DNA of 56,731 bases, the filler included, from Jimgerdemannia flammicorona (taxonomy: Eukaryota): assembly GCA_003990765.1 (NCBI GenBank). It is 3 parts of 3 records of this genome, joined end to end, with 100 filler letters (N's around TTAATTAATTAA, not from the genome) between each part and the next. Parts side by side here need not be neighbours in the genome. Positions count along the whole stretch, not along the records: positions 18,946 to 37,790 come from RBNJ01002093.1; 2 more parts are not named here. The stretch is one strand, 5' to 3'. The translations under genes and the position numbers were made by a program. The notes under the pieces were generated by a model. That model did not search any database and was not told the origin of the DNA. It worked only from the letters and a program-made list of their open reading frames with translations. Shown piece by piece: positions 5,850 through 41,606 of this stretch. Each line of letters begins with the position of its first letter. Within the stretch, counting starts at the first letter, position 1.

Positions 5850-5854
<5 letters not shown>

Positions 5855-6052
5855 CCAAAATGGGCTCGCTATCTGTCTATTCTTCCGCAACCTGGTTGCA
5901 ACATCACGAAAAAATAATGCAATGGGATAACGGACCTGTGCAACTACAAAGATCCGATTTTGTTTCAAATTCAATTTGATGCAGGTAGCGAAATCCGTCC
6001 CAGTCCAGGCGAACGACCGCTGTAAAAGGCGACCCTGTACAAACGTATATAC

Positions 6053-11081: not shown

Positions 11082-11472
11082 CTGCATTCCAAGGCCAAAC
11101 CCCTGACCAAAGCCCACCCAGAGGATATAGGATATGATCTCCACAGTCTGGAGGACAAATCTATCAAGTCTGGAAAAATCTTCATAATCAGAGCTGGATT
11201 AGCTATGCAGTCATCCTGAGGAGCTTACATTCAATTGACCTCAAGGTCTGGACTTACCAGACAAGGAATAACTGTAGAAGGAGAAACCATTGACTCAGGA
11301 TATATAGGCGAAATCAAGGTCATTCTATACAATAATAGTACAGAATAGCACTGAATTATTAGAGGACAGAAGATTGCCCAAGCAGTCTTCATGAAGGTCA
11401 AGATCTCACAACTATAAGAAGTTTCTAAACTGACTGAAGGAACAAGACAAGCCAAAGGATTTGGAAGCTCAG
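11082..11472 (+). pseudogene. dut: Trimeric dUTPase of family A
   Basis: All five motifs: IGYDL, SRSGL, GETIDSGYIGEI, KIAQ, RQAKGFGSS. In-frame stops present. Confidence 0.9.
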
Positions 11473-11608: not shown

Positions 11609-13288
11609 TGTAAGTACATAACCTCTAAGCCATCAAAATCACTTGTCACCCTCAGAACAAATTTAGAAATCACATACAAGATCATAAAGCTAAGTCAACT
11701 TGAAGTCATGGAATATAAGATATATGAAAACAGAACCTTATCAATTAAGATCAAAAGCATATATATATACCAGATACTTGGTATACCAAACAGAGAACTA
11801 TAATAAATTAAATAATAACTATAACTCTCAAACATATACTCAGTCATAATTACTGAAATCTATAACTATATCCATACTAATATTTGGAATATCATTATCA
11901 ACTCAGCCACATCACTCTTACTTCTTATGAATATTCATAGTCTAGCACTCCTCTATTTTATGACAGCTTGATGAAGTATTCTAAATATGTTTTGTGAGAC
12001 CTACCAAATTAAACAAATCTCAAGCTAATATCAAATTAGTTATCTCCTGAAAGTTATAGTTAACTACTACTATGATACAGATATTATCAAAATGTCTCAA
12101 TATTAGAAACTCATTACTTACAAATACTGAGAACTCTTCTATAAGTACAGTATCTTAATACCCTATCTCTGAGTTACTACTGCTGAAATAGTTACTACTC
12201 TAACCTATAGTCAAATTAATAATATAGTATAAGAACTTAACCAGAAATATATCAAGTATATTCAAACCTCTGATAGATACTTTCTGCACTCTGATGACCA
12301 TATCTTACAAATGCTCTAAGTTAGATATATTATAAAAGATATCTATAATATAATCTAGTTTAATAATGATAAAGTAGAAGATAATGATCTCTCTGATATC
12401 AATATGCTCTTTAGCTAAGAATCTCTACCAATCTTGATCACTCTACCAACTTTACTAATAGATTTATAATAGTTTATAACTATCTATAAGATCTATTAGA
12501 ATAATGACTACTGGTATAAGTACTAATCTATATTTGTATCTAACTATTTCAACTATAATGAAGAAATAGGAGAACATAATCTATACCTTCAGATTACTCT
12601 CAAGATAGAACTAATGACTCCACCTCCTGAGTATAAGCAACATGAAGAACAATATTAGTATATAATAACTCTGTAATATAAAGCTCTATAACTTACTGAA
12701 GATATGCTGACAGTGAATCTAATAATAGCAAAGATGATATATCTTTTCTCTGCCTATCAATACCATACTCAGCATATGAGACAGATAATGACATCCTATG
12801 GGATGATCACTTTATTCCAATATACTACTATATTAATAAACAAAGAGATATAATCCAAGAACCACTTTTTCTAGATAACTACTTCATCAGATATAATATC
12901 ATTGATAATAATCTCATCAAAGAATACCCAGATAGTGTCTAAATCTATAAATAGCTTAGCAGTTATTAGTATAGTTAGATTAGCTTAGTACTATATAACT
13001 ATATTCTAACTCATCAATCAGTAGATCTCTTGATATATCTGTTTACACTTTGTACTATATAACTACATTCTGACTCATTAAGTACTAAAGTACTGTACTC
13101 ATATTTAGCCTAGTCTAGAATAAGTCTAAGAAAGAGATGTCAACCTAATCTTAAAATAAATAAGCATAGAGAGTACTCTATATAAAATTGATCTTAATCT
13201 TAAGAAAATAGTCTTTCAGAATATTCAAACCTTTCAGAAACTCCTTCTAGAACTATATAATAGTACTCTAATAAAGTACCCTATTATA
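11609..13288 (+). repeat. LTR family B, U3 variant 1, heavily mutated
   Basis: Reverse-complement homolog of 25235-27313 including both termini. Contains a decayed copy of the U3 ORF at 11846-12942. Confidence 0.85.
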
Positions 13289-18845: not shown

Positions 18846-18945
18846 NNNNNNNNNNNNNNNNNNNNNNNNNNNNNNNNNNNNNNNNNNNNTTAATTAATTA
18901 ANNNNNNNNNNNNNNNNNNNNNNNNNNNNNNNNNNNNNNNNNNNN
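18846..18945. other. Artificial contig spacer
   Basis: 44 N + TTAATTAATTAA (stops in all six frames) + 44 N. Confidence 0.97.
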
Positions 18946-19014
18946 TTTTTTCACTTGGACTTCTTCCTTTATTAATATACTATTCTATCTCATATAAATA
19001 CATTGAGCCCACTT

Positions 19015-22000
19015 CTATCTAATCCCCCTAGAGGGCCCTCCTCCTTCTACTCCTTCACAATTAAAGATCACAAGATTATTAATCATCACAACCCACCTAC
19101 TGCTCAGTTTATATACTCCTTCTATCAGACAGTAATAATGCCCACCCTGGGGACCCCAGCCCACCCACCACTCTGTCAATAAATCACCCATCAACTCCTC
19201 CTATCTTAGCAACTTCTTTTGTAGACTTAACTATCTCCTTTCCTTAAACATGAAGAGCCAGTCAGCCAGCCCTACCCAAATAGCTAACACCCACCCTATA
19301 GTAAGCTATTCATTTTCCACACCCCCTACTAGCTGAGATTTCAAATCCTCCCAGCATCCATGCTCTCTATCTGGTCTCTTCCTCATACCCAGCCAATTTC
19401 CACTGCTATCCAAAAGTCCCCCAGAACCTCATATTCTTCTAGCCAATATTCTGATATCTGCACAAAACCCCCAACTTATCACATATTATAACACTCCTTA
19501 CAGTCTAACTGGCCACCCTCCACCAGATGACCAGCATGGAAATTCAACATTATATTCCTTCATAGTATCTGCCATCATATCACCCAGAACTTGGGAGGAA
19601 GCCATCTCTATACCTCAGCACTCTACAATCAGACTCCTGCCCAGTCCCACTCCTTACCAATCCTCACTGTCTGCCAACTACTTGGCCAAATATCCTGTCC
19701 AAGACCCTGCTGACACTCTACTCTATCACTAATATTAAACTCAGTAAGTGGAATACCCCCCAGAAGCAGCCTGTCCCATCTCTATATATTTGGTCTCCAC
19801 AGCATCTCTCCCTCATTACTCTTCCACTGCAGACTAATGCAGTGTACTCCATCCACCACCTGCCCTTATACTGCAATCATCAGCTATCATCCAGGCCCAC
19901 TAGAGATAGCAAATCTCCCAATAACTCCCAAGAGGAGAATCTCATCTCTCACACCTTCTGTATTAGTAGTACCCAACCCCCCTCTTGTAGTTCAGCAGCC
20001 CTTTTCAGCCACCAAGCTTGTAGGCAGTGCAGCCTCTTAGGAAAGTCCACAAGGCCTAGACCTCCCCAAGTCACCAGTGCCGCAAGTGTATTCCAACTGA
20101 TCTGGGACCTCCTCCCTGCCCAAATCCAGTCTATAGCCAGTTTCATCAGTCTCTTCACTACCTAAGCTGGAAAGTCCAAGTGATAAGCAATATACCATAG
20201 CTTGGGGAACCAGTAGACATTCAGAATTGACACTCAGCCTGCTAGTGAGATATAGCAACCTCCTCAATCTCTAAGAGTCTTCTCTCAAATAGCCACTCTT
20301 CTCTCCCACCACACTCATAACAAGACAGATTCATATATAGAAAAAAAGATACCCAGATACCACACTGCTTCTCTTGTAGGGACAATTATTCCAATGACAT
20401 TTCCTCCCACCAGCCCATTCTCCAGCACTATTATCTCACACTTATGCCAGTTGAGTTTCACTCTAGAGTGTGCCTTATACTATTTCACCATCTCCTTAAG
20501 TATCTCAACATCTACTACAGAGCTAAGTTCAACTACCATATCATTGGCAAAGGCCCCACCTTCTACACCACACTATATATAGAGAGCCCTGCAACCTTCT
20601 GTTGAATCCTATCCATCAAAGGTTCTAATGAAAGGGCATAAAGAATAGGAGACAGTAGATCTCTCTGAGGAACTCCTCTTCTTAAGAGAAATATTAGACT
20701 CTGGTGACCATTACATATCAGTGCTACCCTACTGCCCTCCAACAGATTCAATATAATAGCTCAAAATCATGGGGGAACACTGATTCTATCCAGCACCTTC
20801 CTCAGCCATATCTGCTGAACATGGTCATAGATCTTCTCCTGGTCCAAAAAGACCAGTCTTCCATTCAATCCACAAGCCTGTGCCTCTTCAATGATGCCAT
20901 GCACCCAGGCAGTTCTATTCCTGATAAGTCTACCTCCAATAAAGCCCTGCTGCTTCTCATCCAGCACCTGTTGGACAACCTTCTATAGTCTGGCAACAAT
21001 CACCTTAGTCACCATCTTCCTGTCTATATCCAGAAGCATGATCAGCCTCTAGTTCTTCTAGTCCTCTCTTCTCTCCTTATCTTTGTACAATAAGGCTACT
21101 AGCTCTAAGTCCTGCTCTCTAACTCACTTGCCATTTAAAAGGACATGGTCACAGAGGGCAGTCATCTCTCCTAACACTCCAGAGACCATTGCTATCTTCT
21201 TCCAGAAGTCCCAAGGTAACCCATTCTCTCCTGGTGCTATCCTAATCTTTGTTGTCACAAGGACTCTCTGGATCTCCTCCTCCTGGACTAGTATGATCAG
21301 GTTACCCAGTCTCTCTACTTGCGATAGTTCCCACTCCTCCAGCATATCGCCAATCACTTCTTCATCTGCACCCCCTTCCTCCTCACTCCACAGACCCCTC
21401 CATCTCTCCTTCAGTATCCTCAAGATCTGTTGCATGCCATGCACCATTTCCCCCTCAGCATCAAAGACTCCATCCCATTGATATTGCACCCTCCTAGCTT
21501 GAAAGAGCCTAGACAGGTACCTAGTAGGCTGCTCTCCCTCCTCAAGCCCCTGCTACTATAGTCTAGTAGCCATTCCTTTCATTCAAATCTCCTCCTCCTC
21601 TCTCAATATCTGTTGCAGCTCTACTATCTCTAATTTTGCCTGCTCCAACCTCTAATTCTCCACCTCTTTAGAAGAAAGCAAATCAGCCCATTTCATCTGC
21701 AATCTAATCAGCCTATTAGAAGCATACCTTACTTGCTTCCTTCTCTACTTCCCAGTCTCCCTACCAGCTCCTCCCCAATAAACCCTCACAGCCTCCTTCA
21801 ACCTCATCCAACAGATACCCACAGAAGAACCCTCATGTATCCAGTTATTAATCTTCACTTGAATATCCTCTATCCATGGGTCCCACAACACCTTCTCAGC
21901 TAGCAGGGAGGAGTTAAGATGTCAATGTCTGGGTCCATCTCCACTCCCCCCAAACTGCCCCTACCCTAATAGCCTAGTGATCAGACCATGGGTACTATAT

Positions 22001-22650
22001 TACCTCCAAAGTCTTCCAAACATCAATACCCCAATATTCAGCTGTCAGAATCCAGTCAATTCTCATCCCCAATCCATTCATCTAATGTGTGTAGACCCTC
22101 ATATCACCCCACTATGTTCTGCCCATATCTTCTAAGAAGTTAAGATTCTCTACCTCCTTCCATACATCCAGACCACCACTCCTTCTATCAGTATATCTCT
22201 CTCTATCAGTTCTATCCAACTGCAGATCCCACACCATATTAAAATCACCACTCAGAACATCTACTCCTTCCTCCAAGAGAACACCCCCCTCCAGCAGATC
22301 CCTAATCCATGCAATCCTCTCACCCCTAACTACAGGGCAATAGCAGAAGCCAACCCTTACTAATTCCCACCCAGACCAATGCCATTCTCCCCAGACCAAA
22401 TGGTCACCCCAGCTCCTGATGCCCTCTAAATCTTCTCTACTCTTCCTCACCAGAATCACTACTTTACCAATCCAAGCAGTAGCTCTATCCCATTCTCTAG
22501 TCCACTCCATCCAATCCTCCTCACCCTTATACTGTACATTCTGTAGTAAAAAGAGATCAGCCTCCAATCTCTTAAGCCAAGTAAAAATGTTCTTACACTA
22601 CTCAGATTCCTGTAACCTATTTATATTCAAAGAGAAAATGTTAGTTGTAC
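19015..22650 (-). pseudogene. LINE ORF2 (APE endonuclease + reverse transcriptase)
   Basis: FSLNINRL..DLFLLQ, SGDFN, SDH, QQGFIGGR, VFLDQEKIYDHV, RGVPQRDLLSPILY, AFANDMV (decayed FADD). Confidence 0.9.
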
Positions 22651-22688
22651 TATTTATAAGGAATAATGTTAATTATCAATTGTATCCT

Positions 22689-24624
22689 CTACAAATCCAC
22701 ATTCAACTTCTCCTGTACTAAGTCTAAGTCATATTCTGCAGCCAGTGCCCTCTCTTCAACTATCTGTACCTCCAACTCTACCAGAAGTTCAGCCATCTCC
22801 CCATCCTCTTTTTCCTCAAAGTCCTTATGATATTCCAGACATACCTCCTGCCAGAGCTGTAGCCCACAATACTCTGCCCAATAGTAAGCAGCTTGCTCAC
22901 CAGCAATGACTGCCAGCTCAGCCTCCCTCACCTTATCAATCTCATAACCCTCCTTCTCTAGGAAAATTGTAAGTATCTTTGTCTTTAGTACCTCCACTAC
23001 TCCATCTCTATGCAGAATCTATACCCAGTTCTTCTCAGACATCACATATAGGTCCACTTCCCCTAACTCCTCAGCCATGAAGTTATTCATCATCTTGCTC
23101 ATCCACAACAGGTTTCCCACCTCCTTCCCTCTTGGCATCCCTGGCCTTCCTGTATCAAGTATTGTGGTATCAGCCTCTATACTGGCTGTCTCATTCCATC
23201 TCTCCTCTGGGACATCTACCAGCTCATCCTTGCCAACTGCTACTACCTGCCTACCTTTTGTCACATCAGAAACCCTAAAGTGTACCCACTGAGTACCTTT
23301 CATCAACACATTCTCTGCTGCCTGACCTCTTGTAGCCAGACCCCACTGGACCAAAGGGGGAGTATCATCCAAGGTTGGTTTCCAGACTTCCAATGTACCA
23401 TCAGTATATGAGTCTATGCACAGCATCTTCCCAGCCCACTCTAGGCCTTCCTTCACATCTCCTTCTCCCTGACTAGCCTAGATACTCACCTTTGTACCCT
23501 CAGACTTCTCAGTGCTCCCAGCCTTCATCTTCACCCCTCCTTCTATGCTTGTCAGCAGCTCCCTCTGTCTCCTACATCCTTGAGCCCTCTCTCACTATCT
23601 CCTGTCTGTGTGAATATATTTCCCACCTACAATCTCCAGATGTGTCAACTCCACATATAACTTCCAGGCTTTCACCCTCCTCTCGACAGCATCACTCAAC
23701 TCCTCCAGAGCCTCTAACAAGTCCTCCTCCTCCTCTTTACTCCCTTTTACCCTCAATACCTTACAGACAAATGCCCCCCACAACAACACTGAGAGCCAGT
23801 CACTCATCTTCTCTATAGCCTCTCTCTCAGCCAGTCAAATCCTGATATCTACATCTTCCATCCTAAAGGTGGTCCCCTCTCACATCTGGAAGCTGATATC
23901 CACCACATCACTATACTCTATCATCACCTCCTTCACCCTCCTCCTAGTCTCATCCTTCATCACTGAAGGCACCCCCTTCACCAGTAACTGCACCACTCTG
24001 GGGTCCCACCTCAAGCACTACACTATGGGGACCACTATCTCCCCAACTACCACTCTAGTCTTCAGAGCCTCACCCAGTAGGCCCACCTTCTCAAAGCCCA
24101 CCTCAACCCCCTCCAGACCCTTCAGGAACTTCACTGAGGCTGCCCCAGCCACCTGCTTCGAGATATGTAAGCCCCAGGACCATCTTTACTATTACTGCCA
24201 AGTCCCAGAAGCATAATATAGCCACAAACTCCAAAATTGACTTCTTGAGCAATAGTGCCACTGCCAGCCCCATCACACCATCTGCCAGATCTCCCTTCCA
24301 CATCAGGAACCCCTGCCCCACCTTGCTATCAACTGTCACATCTCTTTTTTTTTCCTAATTTCCCATCACACTCTCATCAACAGTCACTCTCCCAGCCATA
24401 GCAACTCCAGTATCTACACTCACCTCCCCTACCTGAGTATTACTTCCCCTCCCAATGTTAGCCTTGCCCTTTCCCTCAGCAGCACCAGCCCTAGTTCCAG
24501 CTGTCCATCCACTCACCTTTATCTTATCTGCAAAGCTAGAGGGGCCAGGTCTTCTCCCATTTTCACCTAATACCAGTCCTCCTCCTGAGCCCTCTCCACT
24601 CTTTGACCCTCCAAAGGCCCCCAT
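22689..24624 (-). pseudogene. LINE ORF1
   Basis: MGAFGGSKSGEG...EKLNVDL*, fragmented. Homologous to 33730-35654. Confidence 0.75.
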
Positions 24625-25234
24625 CTCCAGTCCATAACCTCTCCCCACCTGCTGCCTGCTGAATTCCCTGGGTCTACCCAACCTAGCATATCTGTCAGAA
24701 CTCTTGCTCAATGATATTTTTATAGTACCTTTTCTCTGAGTTGTATCAAAAACCATTGCTTGAAGTTGGTATAATATGAATAGTATAGGGGAAAGGGTTG
24801 ATACCAGAAGTGCTTGTCAATATTGTCACTACTTAGGATTTCTCAGAGTGCTTGGGCTTCTTTATCATCAGTATATACTATAATAATTTATTCTATAATA
24901 AAGTTGGTAACCAAGATGAGGGTTTGGATAATCTCTTTGATTAGTAGTCTAGAAATTGCATCAGTAATAATATTTTCCTTACCAGGGCAATACCAAATTT
25001 TATAGTCAAAATTGGCAAGGACTTTCATCCATCTGGCTTACTTTCAAGAAAGGATAGTCTGGGTCTTAATATTGACTAATGATTTGTAGTCTGTTAAAAT
25101 GGTAAAGTATACTTTTTTGAGATATGATTGCCATTTGATCAGAGTATCTACAATGGCTAGTATTCCCTTCTTATGGGTTATATAGTTGATTTTGATATCA
25201 TTGAACTTGCAAGAAAGATAGACCACAGAATGTC

Positions 25235-27313
25235 TGTAAGAGGGTTACTTTTTAGGGTGACTGTTACATAGTTCTGGAAGGGTTTTCTGGAAGTTCTGGA
25301 TATTCTGGAAGACTGTTTTCTTATGGTCAGGATCAATTTCATATGGAGTATGTCCTCTATGCTTATTGATTTCAAGATTGGATTGACGTCTCAACCAAAG
25401 TCCTTTTCTGGACTAGTTCTGGATGTTCAGAATTTTCCATATTTCAGGAGGTTCAAGAAACTAAGACCAGCTTAGTTGAATTGGCGTATCGCTGCAGACA
25501 ACACCCAATTAGGAAATTTCGTGACGGGGTTAGGAGTAGGACCTAACAGGGAGCGGATTTACTTAAGAGTGGTTTGTGGGTTATGGAATAGGTTTATTTG
25601 CTATTCATGATATTGCTATACTAGGAGTATTTGTATGAAGAAATATTGTGGGGAAGTGCTCAGGAGTTGTGTTTGGATTGTTCAAGTCTGTTCAAGTCTG
25701 AGATTCTGAGGTCTGGGGGAGGGGGTATTTATACTAGTGAGGGGCTATCTGGACTATGCTAGATATGGATGTAGCACTAAGTGCCTTGCAGAGTCGGAAT
25801 GTAGTCACGTAGTACAAGTGTGATCTGACATGTCAAGAGATTGTCTGACTGCTGAGTCAGTTCACAGTCATGTCGTACAAGGCTAATCTATCTATACTAT
25901 GACTGCTAGGCTATTTATAGATTTAGGCACTATCTGGGTAGTCTTCGATGATATCACCATCGATTGCATCATCTCTGATAAAGTAGTTGTCTAGGAATAA
26001 TGGTTCACGGATTACTTCTCCTTGTTCGCTGAGGTAATAATACATTGGAACTTCATTTCCATCCCACAGGATAGCATCATCTGTTTTGTATGCTGGATAA
26101 GGTGTTGGTGGGCGAAGGATGGGTATATTGTCTTCGCTTTCATCAGATTCACTGTCTGCATACCTTCTATAGGTTACGGCACTATGAGTTGTAGGGTTAT
26201 AGTATGCTGGCGGCTGTGGTTCATGTTGCTCGTACTCAGATGGTGGAGTTGTTGGTTCGATCTCGAGAGTTGTCTGGAGGTACAGGTTGTGTTCTCCGGT
26301 CTCTTCATTATAATTGAAGTAATTGGGGGTGAATGTAGGTTGGTATTCGTGCCAGTGGTCATTGTCCTAATAAGTTTCATAGGTGGTTATGAACTGTTGT
26401 AGGTTCATTGGCAAGGTTGGCAGAGTGATCAGGGTTGGCAGAGATCCTTGGCTAGAGGTCATGTTGGCATCAGAGGGATTATTGTCTTCTGCTTCATCTT
26501 TGTCGAAGTGGATTATATCGTAGATGTCCTTTATGGCGTATCCAACTTGAGGCATTTGCAGGATATGGTCATCAGGGTGCGGGAAGGTTCTGTCTGTGGT
26601 TTTGACATACTCGAGGTACTTGTGGTTGAGTTCTTGTATCATGTCATCGATTTGACCATAGGACAGGGTAGCAACCATTTCGCTGGTAGTAACTCAGAGG
26701 CGGGGAATAAAGGTGTTGTACTCATAAAAGAGTTCTCGATGTTTGCGGGCGATGAGCTTCTGGTGTTGAGACATCTGGGTAATATCTGTATTATGGTGGT
26801 GTTCGACCATGTCTTCTAGGAGGCAGCTGATCTGGTAGTAGCTTGAGATTTGTCCGATTCGGTGAGCCTTGCTAAGCATGTTCAGGGCATTCCATCAGGC
26901 TTCCACGAAGTAGAGGGGTGCCAGGCTATGGATATTCATGAGGGGCAGAGGGGGTGTGGCTCGGTTGACAATGGCATTCCAAATGTCAGTGCGGATGTGG
27001 TTGTAGATCTCAGTGGTCATCTTTGTGTGTTTGGAAGTTGTGGTTGTTGTTTGTTTTGGTTCTCTGTTTCGACGCATCTCAGTGCTTAGTATATGTATAT
27101 GCATTTGGTCCTGATTGGTAAGGTTCTGTTTGTGTAGATCTTGTGTTCCGTGACTTTGTATTGACTCAGCTTTGTATGCTGTGACTTCGGTTTGACTCAG
27201 CTTCGTGATTAAGCAGGTAATTTCCAGATTTGTTTGGAGGTCACGTGTGATTTCAGTAGCTTTGTTCAGAGGGTGACGTGTAATTTTGGTGGCTTGGAGG
27301 TTGTGCGCTTACA
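25235..27313 (-). repeat. Solo LTR, family B, U3 variant 1 (2079 bp)
   Basis: TGTAAG...CTTACA termini and perfect 5-bp TSD ATGTC (25230-25234 / 27314-27318). Minus-strand TATAAATA at 25726-25733 and AATAAA at 25594-25599. Confidence 0.95.
25923..27020 (-). pseudogene. 365-codon ORF of unknown function inside LTR U3
   Basis: Single frame MTTEIYNHIRTDIWNAIV...GDIIEDYPDSA* with only 3 internal stops (TGA 26895, TGA 26694, TAG 26367). It joins three separately listed ORFs. Confidence 0.8.
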
Positions 27314-29649
27314 ATGTCTGTCTTGTATAAGTACTGCTCCAAGAGCTAGATCAGAGACATCAGTGGTAACTTTGTATAGAAGAGCAGAGTTTGCTACTTG
27401 AAGTACTGAAGTAGTTATCAAGGTATCCTTTAGATCTTAAAAGACTGTATCTTGTTCAGGTCCCCAATTTACAAGATTGTTGAAGTCTTTTTCTTGCATT
27501 ATAGTCCAAGGCTGTTCTTCTTTTTTACTATACTTGGTCATTTGAGTGAGGATAGTAGTGATCTTAGTGAAGTTTACAACAAATTGTTGATAATAGTTTG
27601 CTAGTCTCAGGAATGACTAAAGGTCTTTTAGCTTCTTGGGTCTGGGCTAATTCTTGATTACAGAGATTTTGCTAGAGTCTACTTTTATTCTATTAGGAGT
27701 GACAATGTGTTTAAGAAATTGAATTTCCTTCAGAAGAAATTCACATTTGCTGAGTTTTGCAAAGAGTCAGTTTCTCAAAGCTTCAGTAGTATTAGTTCAA
27801 GATGTTTGAGATATTCTTCTAGAGTTTTGCTGAAGACTAGGATATCATCAATATAGACAACAACAAATTTGTCTAGGTATAGGTATAGAATAGTATTCAT
27901 CAGTGTCTGGAAGATTGCAGAAGCATTAGTTAAGCCAAAAGACATAATCAGAAACTTAAAATATCTATAGCAGGTTTTGAAGGTAGTTTTATAGATATCT
28001 TCTCCCTTTATAGTAATTTGCCAATAGCTATTTTATAGGTCAAAAGAGCTCATAAATTGTGGGTTAGTAAGTCTATCAAATATTTTATCAATTTGAGATA
28101 GTGAACAATAGTTCTTGATGGTCTATTCATTGAGGTCTTGGTAGTCAATATATATTTACAGGTCTTCTCCTTTCTTGACAACAAAGAGGACTGATACACC
28201 ATATGATATATTAGATCTAATGAATCCTTATTTTAGGAGTTCATTGATTTCTTTCTTGAGTGCAGGATTAGTATCTGGGATAGTCTTGATAGTATAGTCT
28301 ACTACTCCTTTAGATGGTAGGCCTTTTGGAGAATATGTCTCAGAATTTCTAGAGTAATGGTCTGTCAACTTTGGAAAAGTCTTCTTTGAGGTTTTCAGGT
28401 TCTCCTTTTGATGGGTAGATAGAGATAGCAAAGAGAGGCATTTCTTGGCCAATTTCTTGAGTTATAGCTTATTGATATGGGTGATCTTTGGACCAGGGTC
28501 ACTAGAACTGAGTGGGTCTTTTTCATCTTACAGTTTGAAATTGTGACATTCTTTCTTAATGATCAGAGAATGGTTTACCCAGTCAGTCATAGAGTTCTCT
28601 TATTTTAACTATAGAGTCTCCAGGATAATTTCATTATCAGGAAGTAGTATAATCTGGAGTATAATATATACTTAGTAGTTACCAATTCAGAAGAGTAGAT
28701 TATAGACTTCCTTGCTAATGATATGGGAGGTTCTATTAGCTATAATAATTGCTTGAGTCTGTTATATCAGAGAGGTCAGGACTTTGAGTCTGTTGGCTAT
28801 TTTTTCATTGATGAAGTTGTCTGAGATACTACTGTCTTAATAGATACTTAGTTGATAAAAGCTTAGAGTATAAGCAGTTTGTCTGATCCAATAGTGGTAA
28901 TTTTGATTATAGGAGTTTTCCTTCTGTTGGTTCTCCTTTGGGTCAGTTCATTGATATAAAAGAAGTAATTTTTGATTATTCAGGAAGAGTACATTTAAAT
29001 GTCATAGGGGTATTAGCTACTTGGTATAAATCCATCTTCAATTTTTTATAAAATTGTTCTTCCTTATTTATAGTAAGTTGGACTGGGGCCTTGTTTGATA
29101 AGTCAAATCCTCTGAATCCTTAGATGGTAGATAGTAGTTCAGGGACTTCCTTGACTATCAGAGTTGATTCAATTTTCTTGAATAGGATCTGAGTGATATA
29201 GAAACTGATGGGGATCTTAAAGGGTATCTAACTATGATTTTAAATAAGGACAATGATTTTGTCTATATAATTCTCATCAATGACTCCTCTTTTTACTAAG
29301 AGTCCTTTCAATGCTAGGCTGCTGCAACAGTATATTCTTAGATACTAATCCCTATATAGACTTACTTAACTTCTCAGTTGGAGACTATCTTCTGCTCTAT
29401 TTGCCAATAATGTCTCTCAATGGTCTACTTATCAGACATATAATAGTATTCTATTCAATAGATTACCTATAAAGGATCCTGGGTACAATAGAAAAGATTA
29501 CTCTTATATACATGTCTGCTCCCATTACAGTAGTAATTATCTATATTATTGATACTCCTATAACCCATCACCTTGCCCCTAGAAACATATCCCTACATAT
29601 TCTATATATATACCCCTAGCTGCTCCAAATACTCTACTCCATCACCTAT

Positions 29650-31311
29650 TTACTACCTCTCTTAATGATGCTACTCAAGACATTCTACATTAGTTTCCTC
29701 TCTCCTCTTCTGCTCTTTGTCCTCTCACATAGACATATGAGCTCTAGTTGTATCCTGATCTGTTGGTAGCTCAGACTGCCATCACTGCCATTACTCAAGA
29801 TACTCTTCTCAGCTTTGATAGGCCTCATTGGTGCTTGCTGTCCTATAATCATTACTCTACTCTTGACCATCTAGAGGTAATCATATCTGATATCAAGCAG
29901 GAGATAGCTGCTGGCAGGATTTGTGGTCTGTTTTCATCTCCTCTATTTGAGTGCTTCTACTTATCTCCTCTTGGCATCATTGCAAAAAAGAATTTAAGTA
30001 GTGCATGGTATCATATTTATGACCTCTCTTGGCCTCATTACAGTAATTCCATTAATTTCAGTATTGATATTGATATCTTTTGGCTTTCTTATATTAAGTT
30101 CAATAAGACTTTGGACTTGGTTTACTACTTTAGCTGAAGCTGTCTTTTATTGAAAGTTGATCTTGCTGATACATATCATCATATTTTTATCTATCCTACA
30201 GATTGGGAATTACTGGGCTTTGAATGGTCCAGTTAGTTTTGCTTTGATTGGTTTGCACCTTTTGATACATTTTCATCACCATTCCTTTTCAACCAACCTT
30301 TTTGTAGAACTTCTCATATAGATTGCCCATCATTATGACATAAGCATGCTCATTCACTATATTAATGACTTTCTCCTCATCTCACCACCATCTCTTTCAT
30401 CCACCCTTACTAATTTACATTTGCTTCTTACCATCTGATGCTATCTTAATTAGTCAATTTAGAAGCATAAGATCAAGGGCCCAATAACCTTACTCATTTT
30501 CTTGGACATTAAACTAGATACAATGGCTATAGAAGTCCATCTTCCTCTAAGCAAGCTTGACATACTGCTTGCAATTCTTTAGCAGTGGTTATTATGTATA
30601 CTATACATACACCCTCAACTGCAATCTCTTATCAGCTCCTTGATATTTGCTTGTAAAATTATTCCACCTGGCTGCTCATTTCTCTGGTAGTTTATTAACC
30701 TCCTTTCTGGCAATATCTTATTCTACATCCTACTTAATGAGGAGTTCTATACAGAAATTCAATGGTGGCTTGAATTTCTACTCTACTGGAATGATATTTT
30801 CATTATATATTCAGTTGTATAGTTCTATGAACCTGATGCACATTTGTAGATAGATGCTAGTAATGCCTAAGGCTTTGGTGTACATTTTAATAGTAAATGG
30901 TTTTCTGCTTCTTGGTCTTCTGATATAGCCTTGCATAATATTCAGTTTAAGAAACTCTATGTTATAGTTGCTGCTACTGCTACTTGGGGCATTTAATGGA
31001 ATTTTTACCATATATTGCTTCATACTAATAACCAGGCAGTCATCACTATTATTAACTCAGGCTCTTCATGCTACCCTCTTCTGCTTGAACTCCTCTGCCA
31101 GCTCTATTTTCTGATAGCACACTACACTTTTCAACTTCATACTATATTTATCTCAATATCTGATAATGGTATCACTGATACTTTATTCTATGCTGATCTT
31201 TCTCATTTCTATCATCTTACCCTCTATGCTCAGATATACCCAAGTATGATTGGTATCATTTGTATTCTGCACTTCCACCCATCATTGCTTTCTTTTTGTA
31301 TTTCAGACTGA
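29650..31311 (+). pseudogene. DIRS/Ngaro RT-RNase H
   Basis: EIAAGRICG..SPLGIIAKK..IYDLSWP..NSIN, KVDLADTY, HYINDF (decayed YLDD), DAS..GFG, HTNNQAV..INSGSS. Confidence 0.85.
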
Positions 31312-31319
31312 TAAAAACA

Positions 31320-32265
31320 ATACAATGCCCATATTCTTTGGAATAATGTAGTTTTCTCTAATTCTGTACTCTCTATTATAGTAATCACACCTCTGGTGGT
31401 CCCCTGCCCACATCCAAACTAGTATTAATGTAGGGGGTCTGTAGCTTGGCATTGTGATGGCTTCAACCAACTACAATCAAATATTACCTCTTGGCCATTC
31501 AGTCTCTTCATATCAACTCTGGCTTTGCTGATCTATTCATCAGTCTTTACTAACTTCTCTAAGTAATATGTTGTGTAAAGCAGTGGCTAAGTATTTACTC
31601 AGCTTGACCTTAGCTTTCTATCATGCTTGATATACTTTGCCAACTTAGCAGTTTGCTTTGGTTATCCAATTATAATAATCTGCATCTCATGACCACAATG
31701 TTACTTATATATGTTGAGTTTCTTTGGTCTGACAAATTTATGTAAGATGGTTTCTTTAATCTTGTCTCTCAGTTGTCCTGTAGTAATGTGGTCTTTCAAC
31801 CTAACATTGTAGACCTCATCCATATTATGCTCACTCTACTGGCCTCTAAAACAGATCTGTTCTGCTAAGATATATTGCTTTTTATTGCCAAAATGGACCC
31901 TGCTGCACTATATATCATATCTTTACTCTATCTTCTCTATCTAGCATACTCAGCCTCACCCAACATCCCTCTGTTCTGGTATTCCATGAATTGATTATTC
32001 TCTTGAGTCTATCTCATTAGTTACCTTCATGTATTGCTTCCATAGATTGATTTGAATCCATGACTTTATGCCACACATAGCTTTCAGATTAGTGTAAAAT
32101 CTGATATTACTGTAGCTGGTTTATCTAACTACAAGATTCAGATATTGGGTCAGTGAGATAGCATATTATTTAAAGACTATATTCATATACTCATCTCTCA
32201 TATTCTACATCTCCAGGCTTTGTTAACTCATAATGTTTATCTTGCTACTTATATTACTAGTGTTT
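31320..32265 (+). pseudogene. Tyrosine recombinase of the Ngaro element
   Basis: TIKYYL, SKTD and HSFQIS..AG....IQILGQ*DS..FKDYI, a decayed form of HSFRIG...GRW.S..Y..YI. Confidence 0.8.
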
Positions 32266-32289
32266 AACATTATTCTCCCCTCTCTTCTC

Positions 32290-32715
32290 CCATATAATCT
32301 GTGACACTAGCTTACTTCAGATCCTGCATAGTGTGTAATACCAGCTTTTACTTTCCCTCATTCATCTTACATCACTATATGGTTCACATCACCAGCCCTT
32401 CATTCACTATATTAGCTTTTTTGCCACTATATAGCTCATGATACCAGCCTCCTTTCTATCACTGTGTGGCTCACAACACCACCCTCTTTTCTATTATCAC
32501 ATGGCTTACAACACCAGCCCACTTGGACCTCTATACAGCTTATAACATCAGCCTACTCATACTTTGTATAACTCACAACATTAATTTTTTCTTTATTGCT
32601 TCACTTGCCAGGCCTTCTTGGGCTTTTGCATAGCTTGCAACACCTGTCTTTGGTCCTAACTATATGGCCCATGATACCAGCCATATTCTGACTTTAGGTA
32701 TGGCTTATTTTATTA
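32290..32715 (+). repeat. Degenerate array of ~10 units of a ~25-nt motif, spacing mostly 33-35 nt
   Basis: Units such as CACTATATAGCTCATGATACCAGCC (32425), CACTGTGTGGCTCACAACACCACCC (32460), TATCACATGGCTTACAACACCAGCC (32495) and AACTATATGGCCCATGATACCAGCC (32658). Confidence 0.75.
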
Positions 32716-33670
32716 ATCTATTAGTACCTCCCACCTCCTACTCTGCTTATATTACATACCCATAACCCTCTTTACCTTATTTGGACTGAAATTCATTACT
32801 CTACCAACCATCTTACTGTTATGTATCATTATTCTGCACATTACTACACTTATCATTTAAGCTGGTTTTTCTTTTTATATCATGTATTTTACCCAAATAT
32901 AAAACAATGATCATTTATTTAATGTTTCTCAGATTCCAGGCTTGTTATATAGTCATTTATGGGTTGGTAATAAGGTTATCAGTATATCTTTTTCTTGTCA
33001 CATAGCTTGACATTACATGGGTATAGTATAGTTAATATTACATAGCTATTACTCTACCTTTGTAGTATAGATTGTCATTACAGCAAAATATTAAATAAGT
33101 GGGCTTATTCAAGACCACAGATCAATAAATACAGGAATATCTTGGGCATCTAATGCCCAGAAATGTTTTAATGCTGATGTTTTATTTAAGAAATATATAA
33201 ATCAGACATAGGTTATCTTTTATAGTATTAGTATAGTGTATACATTAATTCTACATATAATCCATCATTTATTCCACTCAATACTTCATATATACTTTAT
33301 ACTTCATACATATATACTTTATATTTATATAATGTGCTTCCATATATTCATACTTATATTCTACACTTCTATATATTTATATATATTTTCATTATTACCC
33401 ACCTCTCTCTACATATATATACACTTAGTGGCTGGACCAGTTTTTCTTTTTATACTGTAAATTTCACCCAAATACAAAACAATAATTATTTATTTGATAT
33501 TTCTCAGATTTCAGACTTGTTATATAGTAATTTATAGGTTGACAATGAGGTTATTGGTATATCCATCATCTCTCTCTACTATCAATCACATAATACAAAC
33601 TTTGAAACACACTTTTGAACTATTTATTCTAAGGTTATGGCAATTAATAAGTAAGCTGATATGTATCTTA

Positions 33671-36600
33671 GATTGAGTGAACCTAGAGCCTTTGACTGGC
33701 AACATATTAGATAAGAGTATAGACTAGAGATGGGGTCTTTCAGTAGTCCAAGTGGGTATGACAGTTCAGGCAGTGGTAGTAGTACTAGAGGAGGGGTGGG
33801 AGAGCAGAGAGAGAGGAGCTTTGCTGATATGCTGAAGACTGGAAAATGGCCTGTCAGAGCTTGTGGCAGGTAGATAAAGGAGAAGGAAAAACAGAGGAAA
33901 GGGGAGGCAGGAGGTGCAGCTCCTCTACTGGTGGGGAGAAGGGCTGGTGGAGTAAATACTAGAAGTAAGAGAGAGACTGCTGATGGTGGCATAATTGGAA
34001 ATCTGGAAAAAAATCCAGATGTGATTGCTGATAGCAGAGCTGAGCTGTTGGAACCAAAGAGGAAGGGAGACCTGGCTGATGGTGTGATAGGGCTGACAGT
34101 AGTACTATTGCTTAAGAAGTTGATCTTAGAGTTTATTGTAACTTTGTGTTTCCAGGACTTGGTGGTGACAGTGAGAATAGTTCTGGACCTTATCTCTAAG
34201 TAGGTGGCTGGGGCTGTCTCAGTAAAGTTCCTGAAGGATCTAGAGGGGGTTGAGATAGGCTTTGAGAAGGCAGGCCTAATAGAAGAAGTGCTGAAGACAG
34301 AAGTAGCTATAGGGGAAGTAGTGGTCCCTATAGTATACTTTCTGAGGTAGGACTCCAGAGTGGTTCAGCTAGGGTGCCTACTATAACAAAGGTTGAAACT
34401 AGGAGGAAGGTTGAGGAGGTGATGGCAGAGTATGGTGATGTGGTTAATATCAGGTTCCAGATATAGGAGGGGACCACCTACAGGATAGGGGATATTGATG
34501 TTAGGATTAGACTAGCTGGAAGAGAGGCCACTGAGAAGATAAGTGACTGATCTTCAATACTGATGTGGGGGGCCTTCATCTGTAAGATGTTGAGGGTAAA
34601 GGAGAGTGAGAAGGAGGAGGATCTGTTGGAGGCTCTGGAAGAGATAAGTGGAGTAGTTGAGCAGAGGGCAAAGGCCTGGAAGATGTATATAGAGTTGATA
34701 TATTTGGAGATTGTAGATGGGAAACATCTCTGTACTGACAAGAGGCAGTGGGAGAGGGCTCAGGAGTATAAGAGGCAGAGAGAGTTATTGATAAGCCTGG
34801 AAGGAAGGGCAAAAAAGAATGTGGGTAATGTTGAAGAGTCTGGGGGTACCAAAGTGAGTATCTGGGCCAGTAAGAGGAGAGGGGATGTCAAGGAGGGTTA
34901 GGATAGAGCTGGAAAGCCACTGTACAATGACCCATATGCAGATGGTATATTTGAAGTCTGGGAACAGGACTTGGATAGTACTTTCTCTCTTGTCAGACAA
35001 GGTCCTGCTGTGAGGAGCTAGGTGGTGGAGGATGTGCTGATGCATAGCACCTAGTGGATATATTTTGGAGTTCGGAATATAGCAAAAGCAGGTCAGATGG
35101 TGGCAGTTGATGAGGATGAGCTGGTGGATGTGATGGAGGAGAAGAGGGATAAGACTGTGAGTATAGGAGCAGATATCATGATATTGAGTACAGGAAGACC
35201 AGCATCTTCAGGAGGGAAGGAGGTGGGAAACCTACTATGGATGAGCCAGATAATGAACAATTTCGCAGCTGAAGAGTTGAGAGAAGTAGACCTGAGGGTA
35301 ATGAGTGAGAAGCATTGAGCATGGATTCTACATAGTGATGGGGTGGTAGAGGCACTGAAGGCAGAGGTACTTGCAATTTTCCTAAAGAAGGAGGAATATG
35401 AGATTGATAAGGAGAGAGAGGCCAAGCTGGTGATTATTGCTAGTGAGCAGGCTGTATACTGTTGGGCAGAGTATCATAGATTGCAACTCTGATAGGAGAC
35501 CTGTCTGAAGTATCAAGAGGAGTTCAAGGAGAAGGAGGATAGAGAGATAGCTGAACTTCTGATTGGATTGGAGGTGAAGATGGCTGCAGAGGGGGAAGTG
35601 GCTGCTGTATATAACTTGGATATGGCAAGGGAGGGGATGAATATGGATTTATAGAGAATGAGCAGTACTTCTAAAAATTATTCCCAATAAACAGTACAAC
35701 TAACATTTTTTCTCTGAATGTAAATGGGTTATGGGGCTCTGGGCAGTATAAGATCATTTTCACTTGGCTTAAGGGATTGGAGGCTGATCTCTTTCTACTG
35801 CAGGATGTATGTTGCAAGGATGATATAGATCAAGTGGAGTAGACTAGAGAATGGGGAGGAGCTATAGCTTGAATGGGCAAAGTAGTGGTTTTGATACAGA
35901 GTGGTAAGGAGATTTGAGTGGAATCAGAAGCTTGGGAGACCATTTGGTATGGGGGGAATGGCATTGACCAGAGTGAGAACTGAGAGTTGGTACTTGCTAC
36001 TACCCTGCAGCTAGGGGTGAGCAGATTGTATGGATTAAGGATCTCTTAGAGGAGGGTACATTCTTGGAGAAGGGGGTGGATATTCTGAGGAGTGACTTCA
36101 ATATAGTGTAGGATCTTCAGTTAGATAGAACTGATGGAGGGAGGAGTACTGGTGGAAGAAGTGGTGGTCTGGATGCTTGGGAGGAGATGGAGAACCTTAG
36201 CTCCTTGAGAGATATGAGCAGAATATAGTGGAGAGAAAAGAGGATTTACATATACTGGGTGAATAGACTAGGTACAATAATTGACTGGATACTGATGGCC
36301 GAATGCTGGGGCTTAGATGTTTGGAGAACTCTGAAGGTAGAGTAGTGCCCATGGTCAGATCACTGGGGATTATTAGGGTAGGGGCAGTTTGGAGGAAGTG
36401 GAGATAGATCTGGACATTAGTGCCTTAACTTCTCTCTGTAGGCTGAGAAGGTATTGTGGGACCCTTGGGCAGAGGACATTCAGGGGAAGATCACTAGCTA
36501 AATACATGAGGGTTTGCCAGTGGATGTCTGGTGGATGAAGTTGAAAGAGGTTGTGAGAGTTTACTGGAGAGAAGCTGGTAGGGTTGCTGGGTAGCAGAGA

Positions 36601-37500
36601 AGAAAGCAAGTGAGGTGTGCTTTCAATAAGTTGGTCAGATTGCAGATGGAATAGGCTGATTTGATAAATTCTAGAGAGATAGATGATTAGAGGTTAGTGC
36701 AGGCTAAGCTGGAAGTAGTAGAGTTACAACAGGTATTGAGAGGAGGAGGAGATGCAGATGAAAGGAATAATAGCTAGAGGCTTGAGGAGGGAGAGAGGCC
36801 CACTAGATATTTGTCAAGGTTCCTCCAGGCTAGAAGGGTGTGACATCAATGAGATAGAGTTCTTAATATAGAGGGGGAAATAGTTCATAGTACACAACAG
36901 ATCTTGGGGTTACTAAAGGAGCAGTGGAGGAGTCTGTAGAGTAAGGAGTACTGATGTAGAGACAATTGGAGATACTCTGGAGACTTGGGAGCCACTGCAA
37001 GTGGAGGACCTGGGGAACTTGATTCTATCAGTTTAAGAGAAGGAGATCCAGAGAGTCCTTGTGGTAACTAAGCTTGGAATAGTACTAGGAGAGGATGGAC
37101 TATCTTGGAACTTTTGAAAGAAGATAGCAAGAGTCCTGAAAGTATTAGGAGAGATGGCAGCCCTCTGTAATATTGTTCTTCTGAATGGCCAGTGAGTGGG
37201 AGGGCAGGACCTAGGGCTGGTGACCCTGTTGTATAAGGATAAGAAGAGGAGAGAGGATTGGAAGAACTGGAGACTGATCATGCTTCTGAATATAGACAGG
37301 AAGATAGTTACTAAAGTGATTGTAGCAAGATTATAGAAGGTTGCCCAACAGGTATTGAGTGAGGAGCAGCAGGGTTTTATTAGAGATAGACTTATCAAAG
37401 ATAGGATGGCCTGGGTCCATGGTGTCATTGAAGGGGCACAGACTAGTAGATTGGATGGGAGACTGGTCTTTTTGGACCAAGAGAAGGCCTACAACTAGAT
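33671..37500 (+). mobile_element. Degenerate L1/Tx1-type LINE copy 2 (ORF1 33730-35654; ORF2 from 35658, broken within RT)
   Basis: Colinear with copy 1. FSLNVNGL..DLFLLQD, SDH, WRLIMLLNIDRK, FLDQEKAY. Confidence 0.9.
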
Positions 37501-37790
37501 CTGGTAAGTATGATTGAGCAATGACTGATATGATGAGAAGGATTGATAGAGGATACTTTGATGGATTGGTAGCATGAGTGGGGTCTGCAGAGTGGTCAGC
37601 AGTATTACTTGGTGAAAAGGATATGTAGACAGAGTAGAGAGAGAGTTGGGGTCATAAGAGATAGGGTGATTTTCAAGCATAAAGAGGTGGAGAGGTGGGG
37701 AGTCTCCCTATGGAGATTGGGTAGTGGGAGGAGATATTGTATACTTATTCATAGACTGGTAATAAAGACGGAGTCCAAGGGACTATAAAA
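37501..37790 (+). mobile_element. 3' end of another LINE-type element abutting copy 2
   Basis: Not colinear with copy 1 RT. Ends AATAAAGACGGAGTCCAAGGGACTATAAAA at the contig edge. Confidence 0.55.
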
Positions 37791-37890
37791 NNNNNNNNNN
37801 NNNNNNNNNNNNNNNNNNNNNNNNNNNNNNNNNNTTAATTAATTAANNNNNNNNNNNNNNNNNNNNNNNNNNNNNNNNNNNNNNNNNNNN
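37791..37890. other. Artificial contig spacer
   Basis: 44 N + TTAATTAATTAA + 44 N. Confidence 0.97.
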
Positions 37891-38594: not shown

Positions 38595-39740
38595 TTTTAT
38601 TTTTTTTATTTTACAGACTCAAAGTTCTGTAGATTTTTATTAGAAGAGAACCTAGACTATATAGATCAAAACTCTCCCTTATTACCCACTGAGCACTATC
38701 CCCTCATTAAACCTAGGCTAGCTATTGTCCAGTGACTCAACCATACCAGATGTAGTAAGACTTACCTATTATTAGAGAGAACTTAGCCATATACTAATAA
38801 CTGAAAACATATGTCTGAAACCATAATATATATATAAGGCTATATCTGAGCTAAATAGAATAGTCTCTATCACCTCAAGTAAAAATAACAGATAAAGAAA
38901 AAATCCTCCTCAAGATACAAAACAGTAAGTAGGACCTAGTTCTTCTAAGCAAGATGAGTAGAGAACTTATATATAAGGTAAGAGAAAACTCCTAATATGT
39001 ATCTCACTACTCAAGCCTGTAGATCTCAATCATATTGCTATATTAGCTCTTAGTTCTAGTTAAGTATAGCCAAGACATCTGATATAGATAGTCTCAAGTC
39101 TCTCAACTATTCTTAATGACTAGAACCTAATCCCACAAATCACCAAAAGTAGCTAAGAGTGATACCTACCACCTAACCACTCTGCACCAATCAAAAGGCT
39201 CTACCAAAGCAGTACCTGCCTCAGCTCTGATGACTACTCCCAGTCTAGTACCCTACTGTCCACTATTATCACCCTTCCTCCTATCTGTGACAGCCATTTC
39301 TCCTTCCATCCTGACAACACTTGGAAAATAGTCACCTATGCCAGAACTGTACTTACTGAGAAGCTTGCTAAAGTCAGAGAGCCTGACCACAAGTACTGAG
39401 AATCTATAGGTAATCTATACTGAGCACTTAATGTTCAAAATCAGCTGACTCTCTATATAACTTATGATATATTGAGATAACATCTTGTTGATAATAGCAA
39501 AAGGAAGAAGGCACTATACTAAAATGAGTACACTCCAGATGCAGCTGAAGATATTAGAAACTATGAAAAAGTAAAGAAGATACTGATAAAGAGACAACTC
39601 ATCTCTATTGCCTCCCTTCCACTGCCCTACAATAGATATAGCAAATTAATCTGAGGTAGAGGGGGTATTAGTTGTGGAAAGTGGACTTGGAAGATTGTCT
39701 ACCAAACTATTATAATCAGTAAGATAGTAGAGAAAGGAAC
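38595..39740 (-). mobile_element. Non-coding poly(A)-tailed retroposon, copy 2
   Basis: Homologous to 1-1167. TSD CTGACTTGTTAAT(G/A)ATT at 38578-38594 and 39740-39756. Confidence 0.85.
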
Positions 39741-40451: not shown

Positions 40452-41606
40452 ATGACCAGATCTGCTACAGTCGACCTCGCTGTCTTTGGTATGTATTATT
40501 TGTATTACTGCATTTCAACACCCACCGTCGAGTCATTCTCCAATTAATGAAAACTACCAGCCGTCAAGTCTACCTTTGTCCTCGGCGTCGCCACCGGCCT
40601 CCTTGGCATGGTCAACACCGTCACCGAGACATTTTGCGCGATACCAGGTGCCTCCTCCCTGATCGCCCCAAAGCTCTGTGCCTTCTCCACCACTCTCAAC
40701 AACTACGGCAGCCACCACTCGCACTCCACTGTCGACAACAACCCTCTCTTCCGCCCAGACACTGCTCAGCTCGCCACCCAGTCTGCGCAGTGGGTCGAGA
40801 CCCACCTTCTCGCTGCAAACTATCCGGCCACCTTCGTTCTCGCAAAGTCAACCGTCGCCCTCCAGGAGCTCGGCGCCATTGTTCGCTACAACTCCCGGCT
40901 CCACTCACGCGAGAGCATGGCCACGCAGATTGACACCTTCGCTCTCCACACTCAGGACGTCGGGCGCGAGCTCTCTCGGCTCCGCGTCGGCGCGCTCGGC
41001 GCCGTCGGCCGACTCGGCGTCTACATCTCGCACCTCCTCCAAACGCTCGAGGGCGAGCGTTCCAACCGGTTCGCCGACCCCCTGCTCGCGCTCCAGCGTG
41101 CACATGACTACGCCATCACCCAGATTGATCGCGAACTTGGCACCCTCCACACCCGCTGTGAGGCCGTACTCGAGTCGCTTCGCGTTGCAGACCAGCACCT
41201 CTTAACCATCACCGCGTCCGTCCAGTCCGAATGGTCGCTCCAGTCCGCCGACGCGGACGACATGCGCCGCGCCGATGGCGCCCTGTCCGCCTTATGGTCC
41301 TGGCTTGGCAGTAATGTGGTCGAGAAGGAGAAGCTCGACGCAAATTTTAAGCTACTCGGCAAGCTGCAGCAGGAGGTATCGGGTGCAAGCCTGGACGTCA
41401 AGTCCACCATGCACGGCCTCGAGATGTTCCAGGAGCAGTTGGCGCAGCTGAAGGTGACCGCCGGCGTGTCGGCGTATGGAGATTTGTCATTGGAGACACA
41501 CATCATGGCTGTGCAGGATAGCTTGAAGAGGTTGCAGGGGAGTGAAAAGAAGTTAGCAGGGAAGATGAGGGAATTGGAAGGGGAGGCCATCGGAATAGAG
41601 GCGTAA
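40452..41606 (+). CDS. Intact 360-aa hypothetical helical/coiled-coil protein with N-terminal hydrophobic segment
   Basis: Exon 1 40452-40488, phase-1 intron 40489-40560 (GTATGT..CAG), exon 2 40561-41606 in frame with the 332-aa ORF. GC3-rich codon usage and CpG retained. Confidence 0.85.

Follow-up and report, generated by a model that had tools for sequence, protein, structure and literature searches.

A 2079-bp solo long terminal repeat (LTR) in the genome of Jimgerdemannia flammicorona (GCA_003990765.1) appears to carry a gene of its own. The reading that we favor, at a probability of roughly 60%, is that this LTR belongs to a long-LTR family of Ty3/gypsy type in a filamentous fungus and that its U3 (unique 3′ region) holds a complete, lineage-restricted gene of 365 codons, which is selected within the family and would supply a trans-acting accessory factor. 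The stretch analyzed, which we call the window, spans 56,731 nt and consists of three joined parts, with positions 18,946 to 37,790 taken from RBNJ01002093.1. Its GC content varies from 0.22 to 0.53, it holds fungal-type repeats nested in one another, and C>T plus G>A changes predominate among the differences between repeat copies. We also return to an earlier interpretation of the same DNA, referred to below as the original prediction.

A solo LTR nested in another retroelement

The unit at 25235–27313 (minus strand) is a solo LTR that lies within a second element of Ty3/gypsy type, because it has TG...CA ends and a GACAT target duplication, interrupts a reverse transcriptase (RT)/RNase H frame, and is missing from contigs that carry the empty site. 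The ends (TGTAAG...CTTACA) were read directly and aligned with those of the three other LTRs of the family in the window. Immediately outside them stand the two copies of GACAT, also read directly, at 27314–27318 upstream and 25230–25234 downstream (minus strand); the unit thus shows both TG...CA termini and a target duplication within the 4–6 bp typical of an LTR, here 5 bp. Pfam recognizes the interrupted frame on either side, with RT at 27775–28032 (E = 3.7e-14) and an RT-type RNase H at 25044–25244 (E = 2.6e-12), so that RT precedes RNase H in the interrupted element.

To this LTR we aligned Logan contigs from four runs, namely X1 (a soil metagenome), X3, X13, and X14. Contigs at least 85% alike to it number thousands of short pieces in X1 and hundreds in X3, and four contigs (three from X1, one from X3) join the flanks directly without the 2.08-kb unit.

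A 365-codon frame in the U3

The U3 frame runs from 27020 to 25923 (minus strand; 365 codons plus TAA). It starts 293 nt into the LTR and stops 190 nt short of TATAAA, and AATAAA follows about 330 nt past its stop. Two TGA codons (26895–26897 and 26694–26696) and one TAG (26367–26369) interrupt it, which confirms the proposal in the original prediction of a sense frame at 27020–25923 with exactly three stops, ending at this distance above the TATA box. The other two sense frames over the same span contain 14 and 31 stops. Among 2000 dinucleotide-preserving shuffles, none had four or fewer stops in any sense frame, the lowest count being 7. The sense strand of the 1098-nt frame is composed of A 363, C 322, T 233, and G 180. 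The strand opposite a real gene often shows open frames, and one antisense frame over 25923–27020 has five stops in 1098 nt; no relative of it was found.

We translated the frame with its stops as X (query P0001) and compared it with 5.8 billion proteins by word-based searches over near, shorter, and longer length ranges, and with 1.84 billion cluster representatives by a profile search that covered the C-terminal 247 positions, the N-terminal 114 residues lying outside it. Exactly two of the 5.8 billion proteins matched, and one of these, P0002, was the sole match among the 1.84 billion representatives. The other, P0003, is a 128-residue protein 90% identical to residues 1–128, with the same start methionine and arginine at both TGA places. 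P0002 has 247 residues and is 67% identical (82% similar) to residues 115–364, with two short in-frame gaps and tryptophan at the TAG place; a third of its residues have changed, yet its 247 codons are free of stops and frameshifts, a pattern that suggests constraint.

The contigs tell the same story at 26368, where all of them carry a tryptophan codon (depth 624.6/624.6 over 25 contigs in X1 and 59.4/59.4 over 11 contigs in X3). Between them, P0003, P0002, and the X1/X3 contigs thus show a sense codon at each of the three stop places in other copies. The private G>A changes of the window copy at 26480 and 26792 are absent from almost all contigs, and single C>T/G>A changes in this copy account for 10 of the 13 residues at which it differs from P0003. 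Scanning metagenome contigs by protein alignment gave 74 stretches that fit one peptide pattern, none of them confirmed, and an exact 33-nt pattern around the TATA box had no match.

A second version-1 LTR in the window, at 11609–13288 (plus strand), holds a remnant of the gene at 11846–12942 (plus strand) with 17 stops and one 1-nt deletion. All three stops of the solo copy recur in it. The 11609 copy reads T/A at 37–53% of the solo copy's C/G sites (0.42/0.37/0.53 over codon positions 1/2/3), and rough arithmetic from these C/G>T/A rates puts the chance of coincidental sharing of all three stops at about 0.07–0.1, so that the stops are likely to have been inherited from a common ancestor. 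The original prediction had cautioned that the gene may have died before these copies diverged; the stops are indeed shared, yet other copies jointly read sense at all three places.

Differences between copies are spread unevenly over codon positions. Transversions that separate the two window copies number 18/8/26 at positions 1/2/3 (p = 0.009), and sites at which the solo copy has T/A against C/G in the other copy fall 12/2/22 (p = 0.0005). Between the same two copies we count one 1-nt indel in the 1097 aligned nt of the frame versus 11 in the 568 nt outside it; those upstream of the ATG measure 2, 61, 2, 5, and 4 nt. All five indels among the best-supported differences listed for the aligned contigs likewise lie outside 25923–27020, three of them just upstream of the ATG, where indels of 4 nt and 1 nt occur at 27047, 27092, and 27261. 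These patterns support the view that the frame is a genuine protein-coding gene lying wholly inside the LTR, within U3. Such a gene would therefore be copied whenever its LTR is and would persist in solo LTRs.

One LTR family with two versions of U3

The window contains four LTRs of a single family: the solo LTR, the 11609–13288 copy, and two at 47246–48734 and 52128–53620 (both minus strand). Alignment bears out the original prediction that all four have in common a 3′ portion of about 750 bp with TATA box, AATAAA, and U5 and that they come in two versions of U3, the solo and 11609 copies representing version 1 and the remaining two version 2. The 11609 LTR, which has a polypurine tract before it and is a 3′ LTR, has a GC content of 0.28 and heavy C>T/G>A change; it was said to be partly deleted in its 3′ portion, and 345 bp of its R/U5 are in fact gone.

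The two versions coincide at both ends. Their common 3′ block (25235–25984, minus strand; 750 bp) is 93% identical between versions and includes the last ~20 codons of the gene, R, and U5, with TATAAA at 25728–25733 and AATAAA at 25593–25598 (minus strand), both kept in the three well-preserved LTRs. At the 5′ end the common block measures about 84 bp (27230–27313, minus strand; 74–79% identity), rather than the ~35 bp first proposed. The central U3 blocks between these ends (version 1, about 1245 bp; version 2, about 660 bp) show no similarity to each other (blastn, E ≤ 1e-5). R/U5 is thus conserved, and divergence is confined to U3 upstream of the TATA box.

Non-coding U3 specific to version 1 precedes the ATG at 27021–27229 (minus strand) and differs between copies by frame-breaking indels. 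It contains two TGAGTCA motifs (27162–27168 and 27193–27199) and an A/T-rich ATATACATATA at ~27090–27100, some 70–80 nt before the ATG. These two motifs, which are sites of the AP-1/Gcn4 type, lie in a short tandem duplication of the solo LTR that falls inside the 61 nt that the 11609 copy lacks. In each of the four LTRs the same heptamer also precedes the TATA box by about 120 nt (25853–25859, 13071–13077, 47860–47866, and 52742–52748). TGAGTCA is not enriched in the window (13 occurrences versus 11.3 expected), and we did not count it as promoter evidence.

Version-2 LTRs keep the ~22 last codons and the stop of the version-1 gene, a relic at ~47930–48000 and ~52812–52882 (minus strand) identified by tblastn, which reports the last 19 codons only, and by direct reading. 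In the frame of this retained tail (...NYSDFASNDVINGDVIKDYPDSA, then the stop) several stops occur directly upstream. Since version 2 retains 3′ codons of the gene, the right-hand breakpoint of the exchanged block falls within the gene. Most simply, version 2 would be a replacement or deletion derivative of a gene-bearing LTR, or a recombinant; the change may also have run in the opposite direction, with a captured coding segment fused onto older LTR sequence. The proposal that U3 harbors a gene left behind in solo LTRs is supported, and its extension to an exchangeable cassette or slot, as stated, is not: there are two versions only, one of them gene-less, with a breakpoint inside the gene. 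We also considered the version-2 U3 as an alternative gene and rejected it, as its longest sense frames measure 64–92 residues and find no family match, and stops stand directly above the retained tail.

Weighing the proposed selected U3 gene against other explanations

Several points count against a gene maintained by selection. P0003 covers the N-terminal 128 residues only and P0002 begins at residue 115, so that no full-length unbroken copy was seen; both are known as proteins alone, and their genes may lie outside LTRs. The absence of indels from the frame holds among the best-supported contig differences, those listed, and the TGA places are judged from P0003 alone. The family is tiny, with two relatives, and selection is deduced from few sequences, through codon positions and indels rather than dN/dS (the ratio of nonsynonymous to synonymous substitution rates); the codon-position signal is itself partly confounded by C>T/G>A mutation, which depends on the base content of each position. 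Given that both window copies share their stops, transposition may have continued from a master copy whose gene was already dead, and these shared stops along with the gene-less version 2 argue for a gene of little or no benefit to the element.

The best-surviving alternative, which we consider unlikely, is that a host gene or gene fragment was taken into U3 by template switching or recombination and has since been decaying there as passive cargo. Such cargo would be dispensable, and gene-less version-2 LTRs do flank an inserted element; the two window copies have three stops in common; and the position of the last ~20 codons in the block common to version 2 looks as if a fragment reads into older LTR sequence. 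Capture of open reading frames (ORFs) by LTR elements is moreover well documented, to judge from the accessible text of two reports (PMC6431247, PMC5408684). Against this, no cellular homologue emerged from Pfam, the PDB, the 5.8 billion proteins, or the cluster representatives, and the only relatives are two proteins from short contigs; a host parent gene may still exist. The tail inside the common block is conserved as protein in P0002, at 67% identity overall, and the codon-position and indel patterns point to constraint during evolution as a repeat.

That the 1245 bp specific to version 1 are a separate nested transposable element, with the frame as its gene, is highly improbable. The block is absent from version 2 and its limits, near 27229 and 25985, are sharp. 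Version 2, however, has a different block of about 660 bp in the same place, which is a replacement and not an empty site, and the frame extends ~60 nt beyond the right-hand limit into common sequence and ends there. The original prediction had named a nested insertion with its own target duplication as a result that would overturn it; reading of the junctions showed no target duplication or terminal repeats, with no dedicated repeat search of the block ends, and the protein contains no transposase, RT, or other Pfam domain.

We reject the idea that the frame is a C-terminal extension of Pol, reached by read-through of a TAA within the first five bases of the LTR (TGTAA), even though that same codon terminates the pol frame of the version-2 element and the frame of the solo LTR stays open from just after it (27309–27311, minus strand) to the first TGA, a run with 96 codons ahead of the ATG. 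Between copies, the region above the ATG shows indels of 1, 2, 4, 5, and 61 nt, so the frame link is not conserved, and P0003 begins at the ATG; no protein of 640–2000 residues matched, which we rate as weak evidence. Least credible of all is a chance opening without coding function, since an A/C-rich sense strand, which lowers stop frequency, and an antisense frame with only five stops are outweighed by the shuffles (0/2000 reaching four or fewer stops), by P0003 (90%) and P0002 (67%), unbroken over the stretches they cover apart from in-frame gaps, and by differences lying mainly at third codon positions.

The predicted protein

The translated product is acidic, with an isoelectric point (pI) of 4.49, 58 Asp and Glu versus 20 Lys and Arg, and at most one cysteine. 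It has no hydrophobic N terminus or segment and no signal peptide, the maximum 19-residue Kyte-Doolittle value being 0.86. Tyr, Pro, Asp, and Glu abound in the C-terminal half, and Glu, Pro, and Tyr each make up 11% of the C-terminal 150 residues. Several helices are suggested for the N-terminal ~215 residues by an AlphaFold2 model that is too poor to use: from an alignment of three sequences, its mean predicted local distance difference test score (pLDDT) was 31.9, its predicted template modeling score was 0.20, and all residues scored below 50, so that the fold is not comparable with known structures.

Searches for distant relatives returned no Pfam family at E ≤ 1 and only chance-level matches in a PDB profile search (E = 0.33), with no homology to Sag, Nef, or Bet. 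In the ESM Atlas, P0002 had no usable match (its own model has a pLDDT of 0.39, with all template modeling scores ≤0.30), and P0003 reached feature scores of 0.90–0.93 to unrelated small proteins only, with recognition below the bar. The product is probably soluble and intracellular, with no relatives detected outside the repeat family. With no hydrophobic segment, at most one cysteine, and a pI of ~4.5, a secreted effector or host-manipulating protein, one of the roles envisaged in the original prediction, is unlikely. An intracellular protein-binding or adaptor role is our guess.

Predicted expression and role of the gene

Under the favored reading, every version-1 LTR, solo LTRs included, would be a copy of the gene. 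Purifying selection would keep it within the family, and both copies in the window would be dead ones bearing stops of the C>T/G>A type. In a full element the gene would be transcribed only from the 3′ LTR, as the final part of the genomic RNA. It could be expressed as a 3′-terminal cistron via a spliced subgenomic mRNA, with the transcript ending at the LTR poly(A) signal, or alternatively from its own promoter within the 290 nt of U3 that precede the ATG. The predicted product would serve the element as a trans-acting accessory factor. Transposition does not appear to require the gene in cis, given that an element inserted with a CAAGA/CAGGA duplication is flanked by gene-less version-2 LTRs with 96.5% mutual identity.

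A more specific proposal, which we hold tentatively and at somewhat less than even odds, is that the predicted retrovirus-like accessory gene makes each LTR, and each solo LTR that recombination leaves, a self-contained gene copy in which candidate upstream motifs, the ORF, and the poly(A) signal of the LTR follow one another, and that the acidic orphan acts in trans on the life cycle of the element or on host defences against repeats.

None of the runs on record as RNA contains the stretch. In X13 and X14, which are RNA by guess only, contigs pile up on 25287–25666 (R/U5), and depth over the gene is 0–12. One contig in each has an Illumina adapter directly after 25669 and 25671, respectively, ~60 nt downstream of TATAAA, and this position may be a 5′ end. 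With the kind of library uncertain, we draw no conclusion from these two runs on expression or transcript start.

Comparison with known LTR-borne and accessory genes

Accessory genes set "complex" retroviruses apart from simple ones. In mouse mammary tumor virus (MMTV), sag is a superantigen gene in the U3 of the LTR, and nef of human and simian immunodeficiency viruses (HIV/SIV) and bel2/bet of foamy viruses overlap U3. The putative fungal gene resembles all of these as a sense accessory frame in or overlapping U3 that is copied to both LTRs at reverse transcription. As in these viruses, the frame lies above the LTR promoter and would use the LTR poly(A) signal, the latter being predicted here from layout. 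Its arrangement matches that of sag and, in part, those of nef and bel2. It departs from them in that it has no sequence or family match, in that its host element is of fungal Ty3/gypsy type with no env seen, and in that the whole frame, start codon included, lies within U3 and is known from sequence alone. For the foamy-virus frame, see PMC11362648, where, as with the other reports cited in this section, we refer to the accessible part of the text.

A gene unit embedded in an LTR and multiplied with it is also known from the plant Cassandra elements, terminal-repeat retrotransposons in miniature (TRIM) that bear an RNA polymerase III-transcribed 5S rRNA gene in each LTR; the unit described here differs in being protein-coding and fungal.

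Variation confined to U3 has a fungal precedent in crapaud, a gypsy-type element with a chromodomain from the Podospora anserina complex, Ascomycetes with repeat-induced point mutation, whose U3-variable LTR subfamilies have conserved R/U5 and differ upstream of the TATA box; its recombinant LTRs were attributed to template switching or gene conversion (PMC10787394). The present family likewise keeps R/U5 and has U3 versions that differ above the TATA box. In crapaud, by contrast, the LTRs measure 339–443 bp and vary over less than 200 bp, where the accessible text reports no ORF (PMC10787394), whereas here the variable blocks measure 0.66 and 1.25 kb and one of them holds the 365-codon gene.

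Extra ORFs of LTR retrotransposons are known mainly from the internal region. ORF0 of rice Retrosat2, RIRE3, and RIRE8 lies upstream of gag-pol (PMC3485330), and others lie downstream of pol (PMC6431247, PMC5408684). In Botrytis, Boty/BcGypsy1 carries an extra gene, brtn, which is called antisense and for which the accessible text gives no U3 location (PMC8365987); the suggestion in the original prediction that no accessory ORF is recognized for fungal Ty3/gypsy elements was accordingly too strong. The gene considered here resembles brtn, ORF0, and the post-pol ORFs, as described in those portions of the literature, in being lineage-restricted, fast-evolving, so far without a function, often an orphan, and borne by Ty3/gypsy elements besides gag-pol. 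Unlike ORF0 and the post-pol ORFs, which occupy the internal region, and unlike the antisense brtn, it lies inside the LTR, is present twice per element, and persists where only a solo LTR is left. Our literature search, which was incomplete in coverage, found no report of an ORF inside the LTR or U3 of a fungal retrotransposon.

If the arrangement is real, it would be the first of the sag type in anything other than a retrovirus and would disperse genes on LTRs through a fungal genome, and if the gene is indeed selected, fungal retrotransposons would be able to evolve independently the compact layout of retroviruses. Solo LTRs, usually seen as non-coding relics or as promoters, could then scatter gene copies. 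A repeat-borne gene would be under unusual pressure in a fungus with C>T/G>A mutation of repeats, and the persistence of unbroken copies would itself be a question. For annotation, the case warns against masking long fungal LTRs before their coding capacity has been examined.

The version-2 element and other features of the window

The version-2 LTRs belong to one element (47241–53625 with its duplication, minus strand), which was inserted with a target duplication CAAGA/CAGGA (4/5 match). The copy at 52128–53620 is its 5′ LTR and the gene-less copy at 47246–48734, placed by alignment, its 3′ LTR. The pol frame of this element stops at the TAA in the first five bases of its 3′ LTR, at 48734, and so ends within the LTR. 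A primer-binding site, TGGTAGCAGCAG, lies 3 nt after the 5′ LTR at 52128, and the polypurine tract AAGAAGGGGAGAG adjoins the LTRs at 11609 and 48734. The 3.4-kb interior (48735–52127, minus strand) has gag-like frames, and the polypurine tract stands at its end. Pfam places a dUTPase (PF00692, E = 4.9e-34) at 49609–50148 and an aspartyl protease (E = 2.8e-08) at 49273–49608 (both minus strand), so that the dUTPase sits between the gag-like frames and the protease. The interior lacks RT, RNase H, and most or all of integrase, and 47246–53620, the only complete element of the family, is by this content an internally deleted, non-autonomous derivative.

About 1 kb of this interior (48902–49936) is 79.5% identical to 28325–29339 in the element hosting the solo LTR. 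Upstream of the 11609 LTR, a mutated frame at 10962–11219 (plus strand) with a GYDLHS-like motif may be a dUTPase; it has no Pfam hit.

At 18846–18949 and 37787–37890 lie identical runs of N with TTAATTAATTAA in mid-run, which look like assembly linkers or masked stretches. They flank an inverted repeat pair (~19000–24200 and 34200–37500) that is 72–79% complementary with strong GC skew, and within which a frame at 22112–22597 (minus strand) resembles, by eye only, the endonuclease of an element of the long interspersed nuclear element (LINE) type. A second repeat family is present as direct copies at 28–974 and 38632–39557 (72–80% identical), with transition-type decay in the 38632 copy. A GC-rich stretch at 40551–41606 (plus strand) contains an open frame of 351 residues, and a poly(A) run of ~80 nt with single C interruptions lies amid repeats at 5771–5858.

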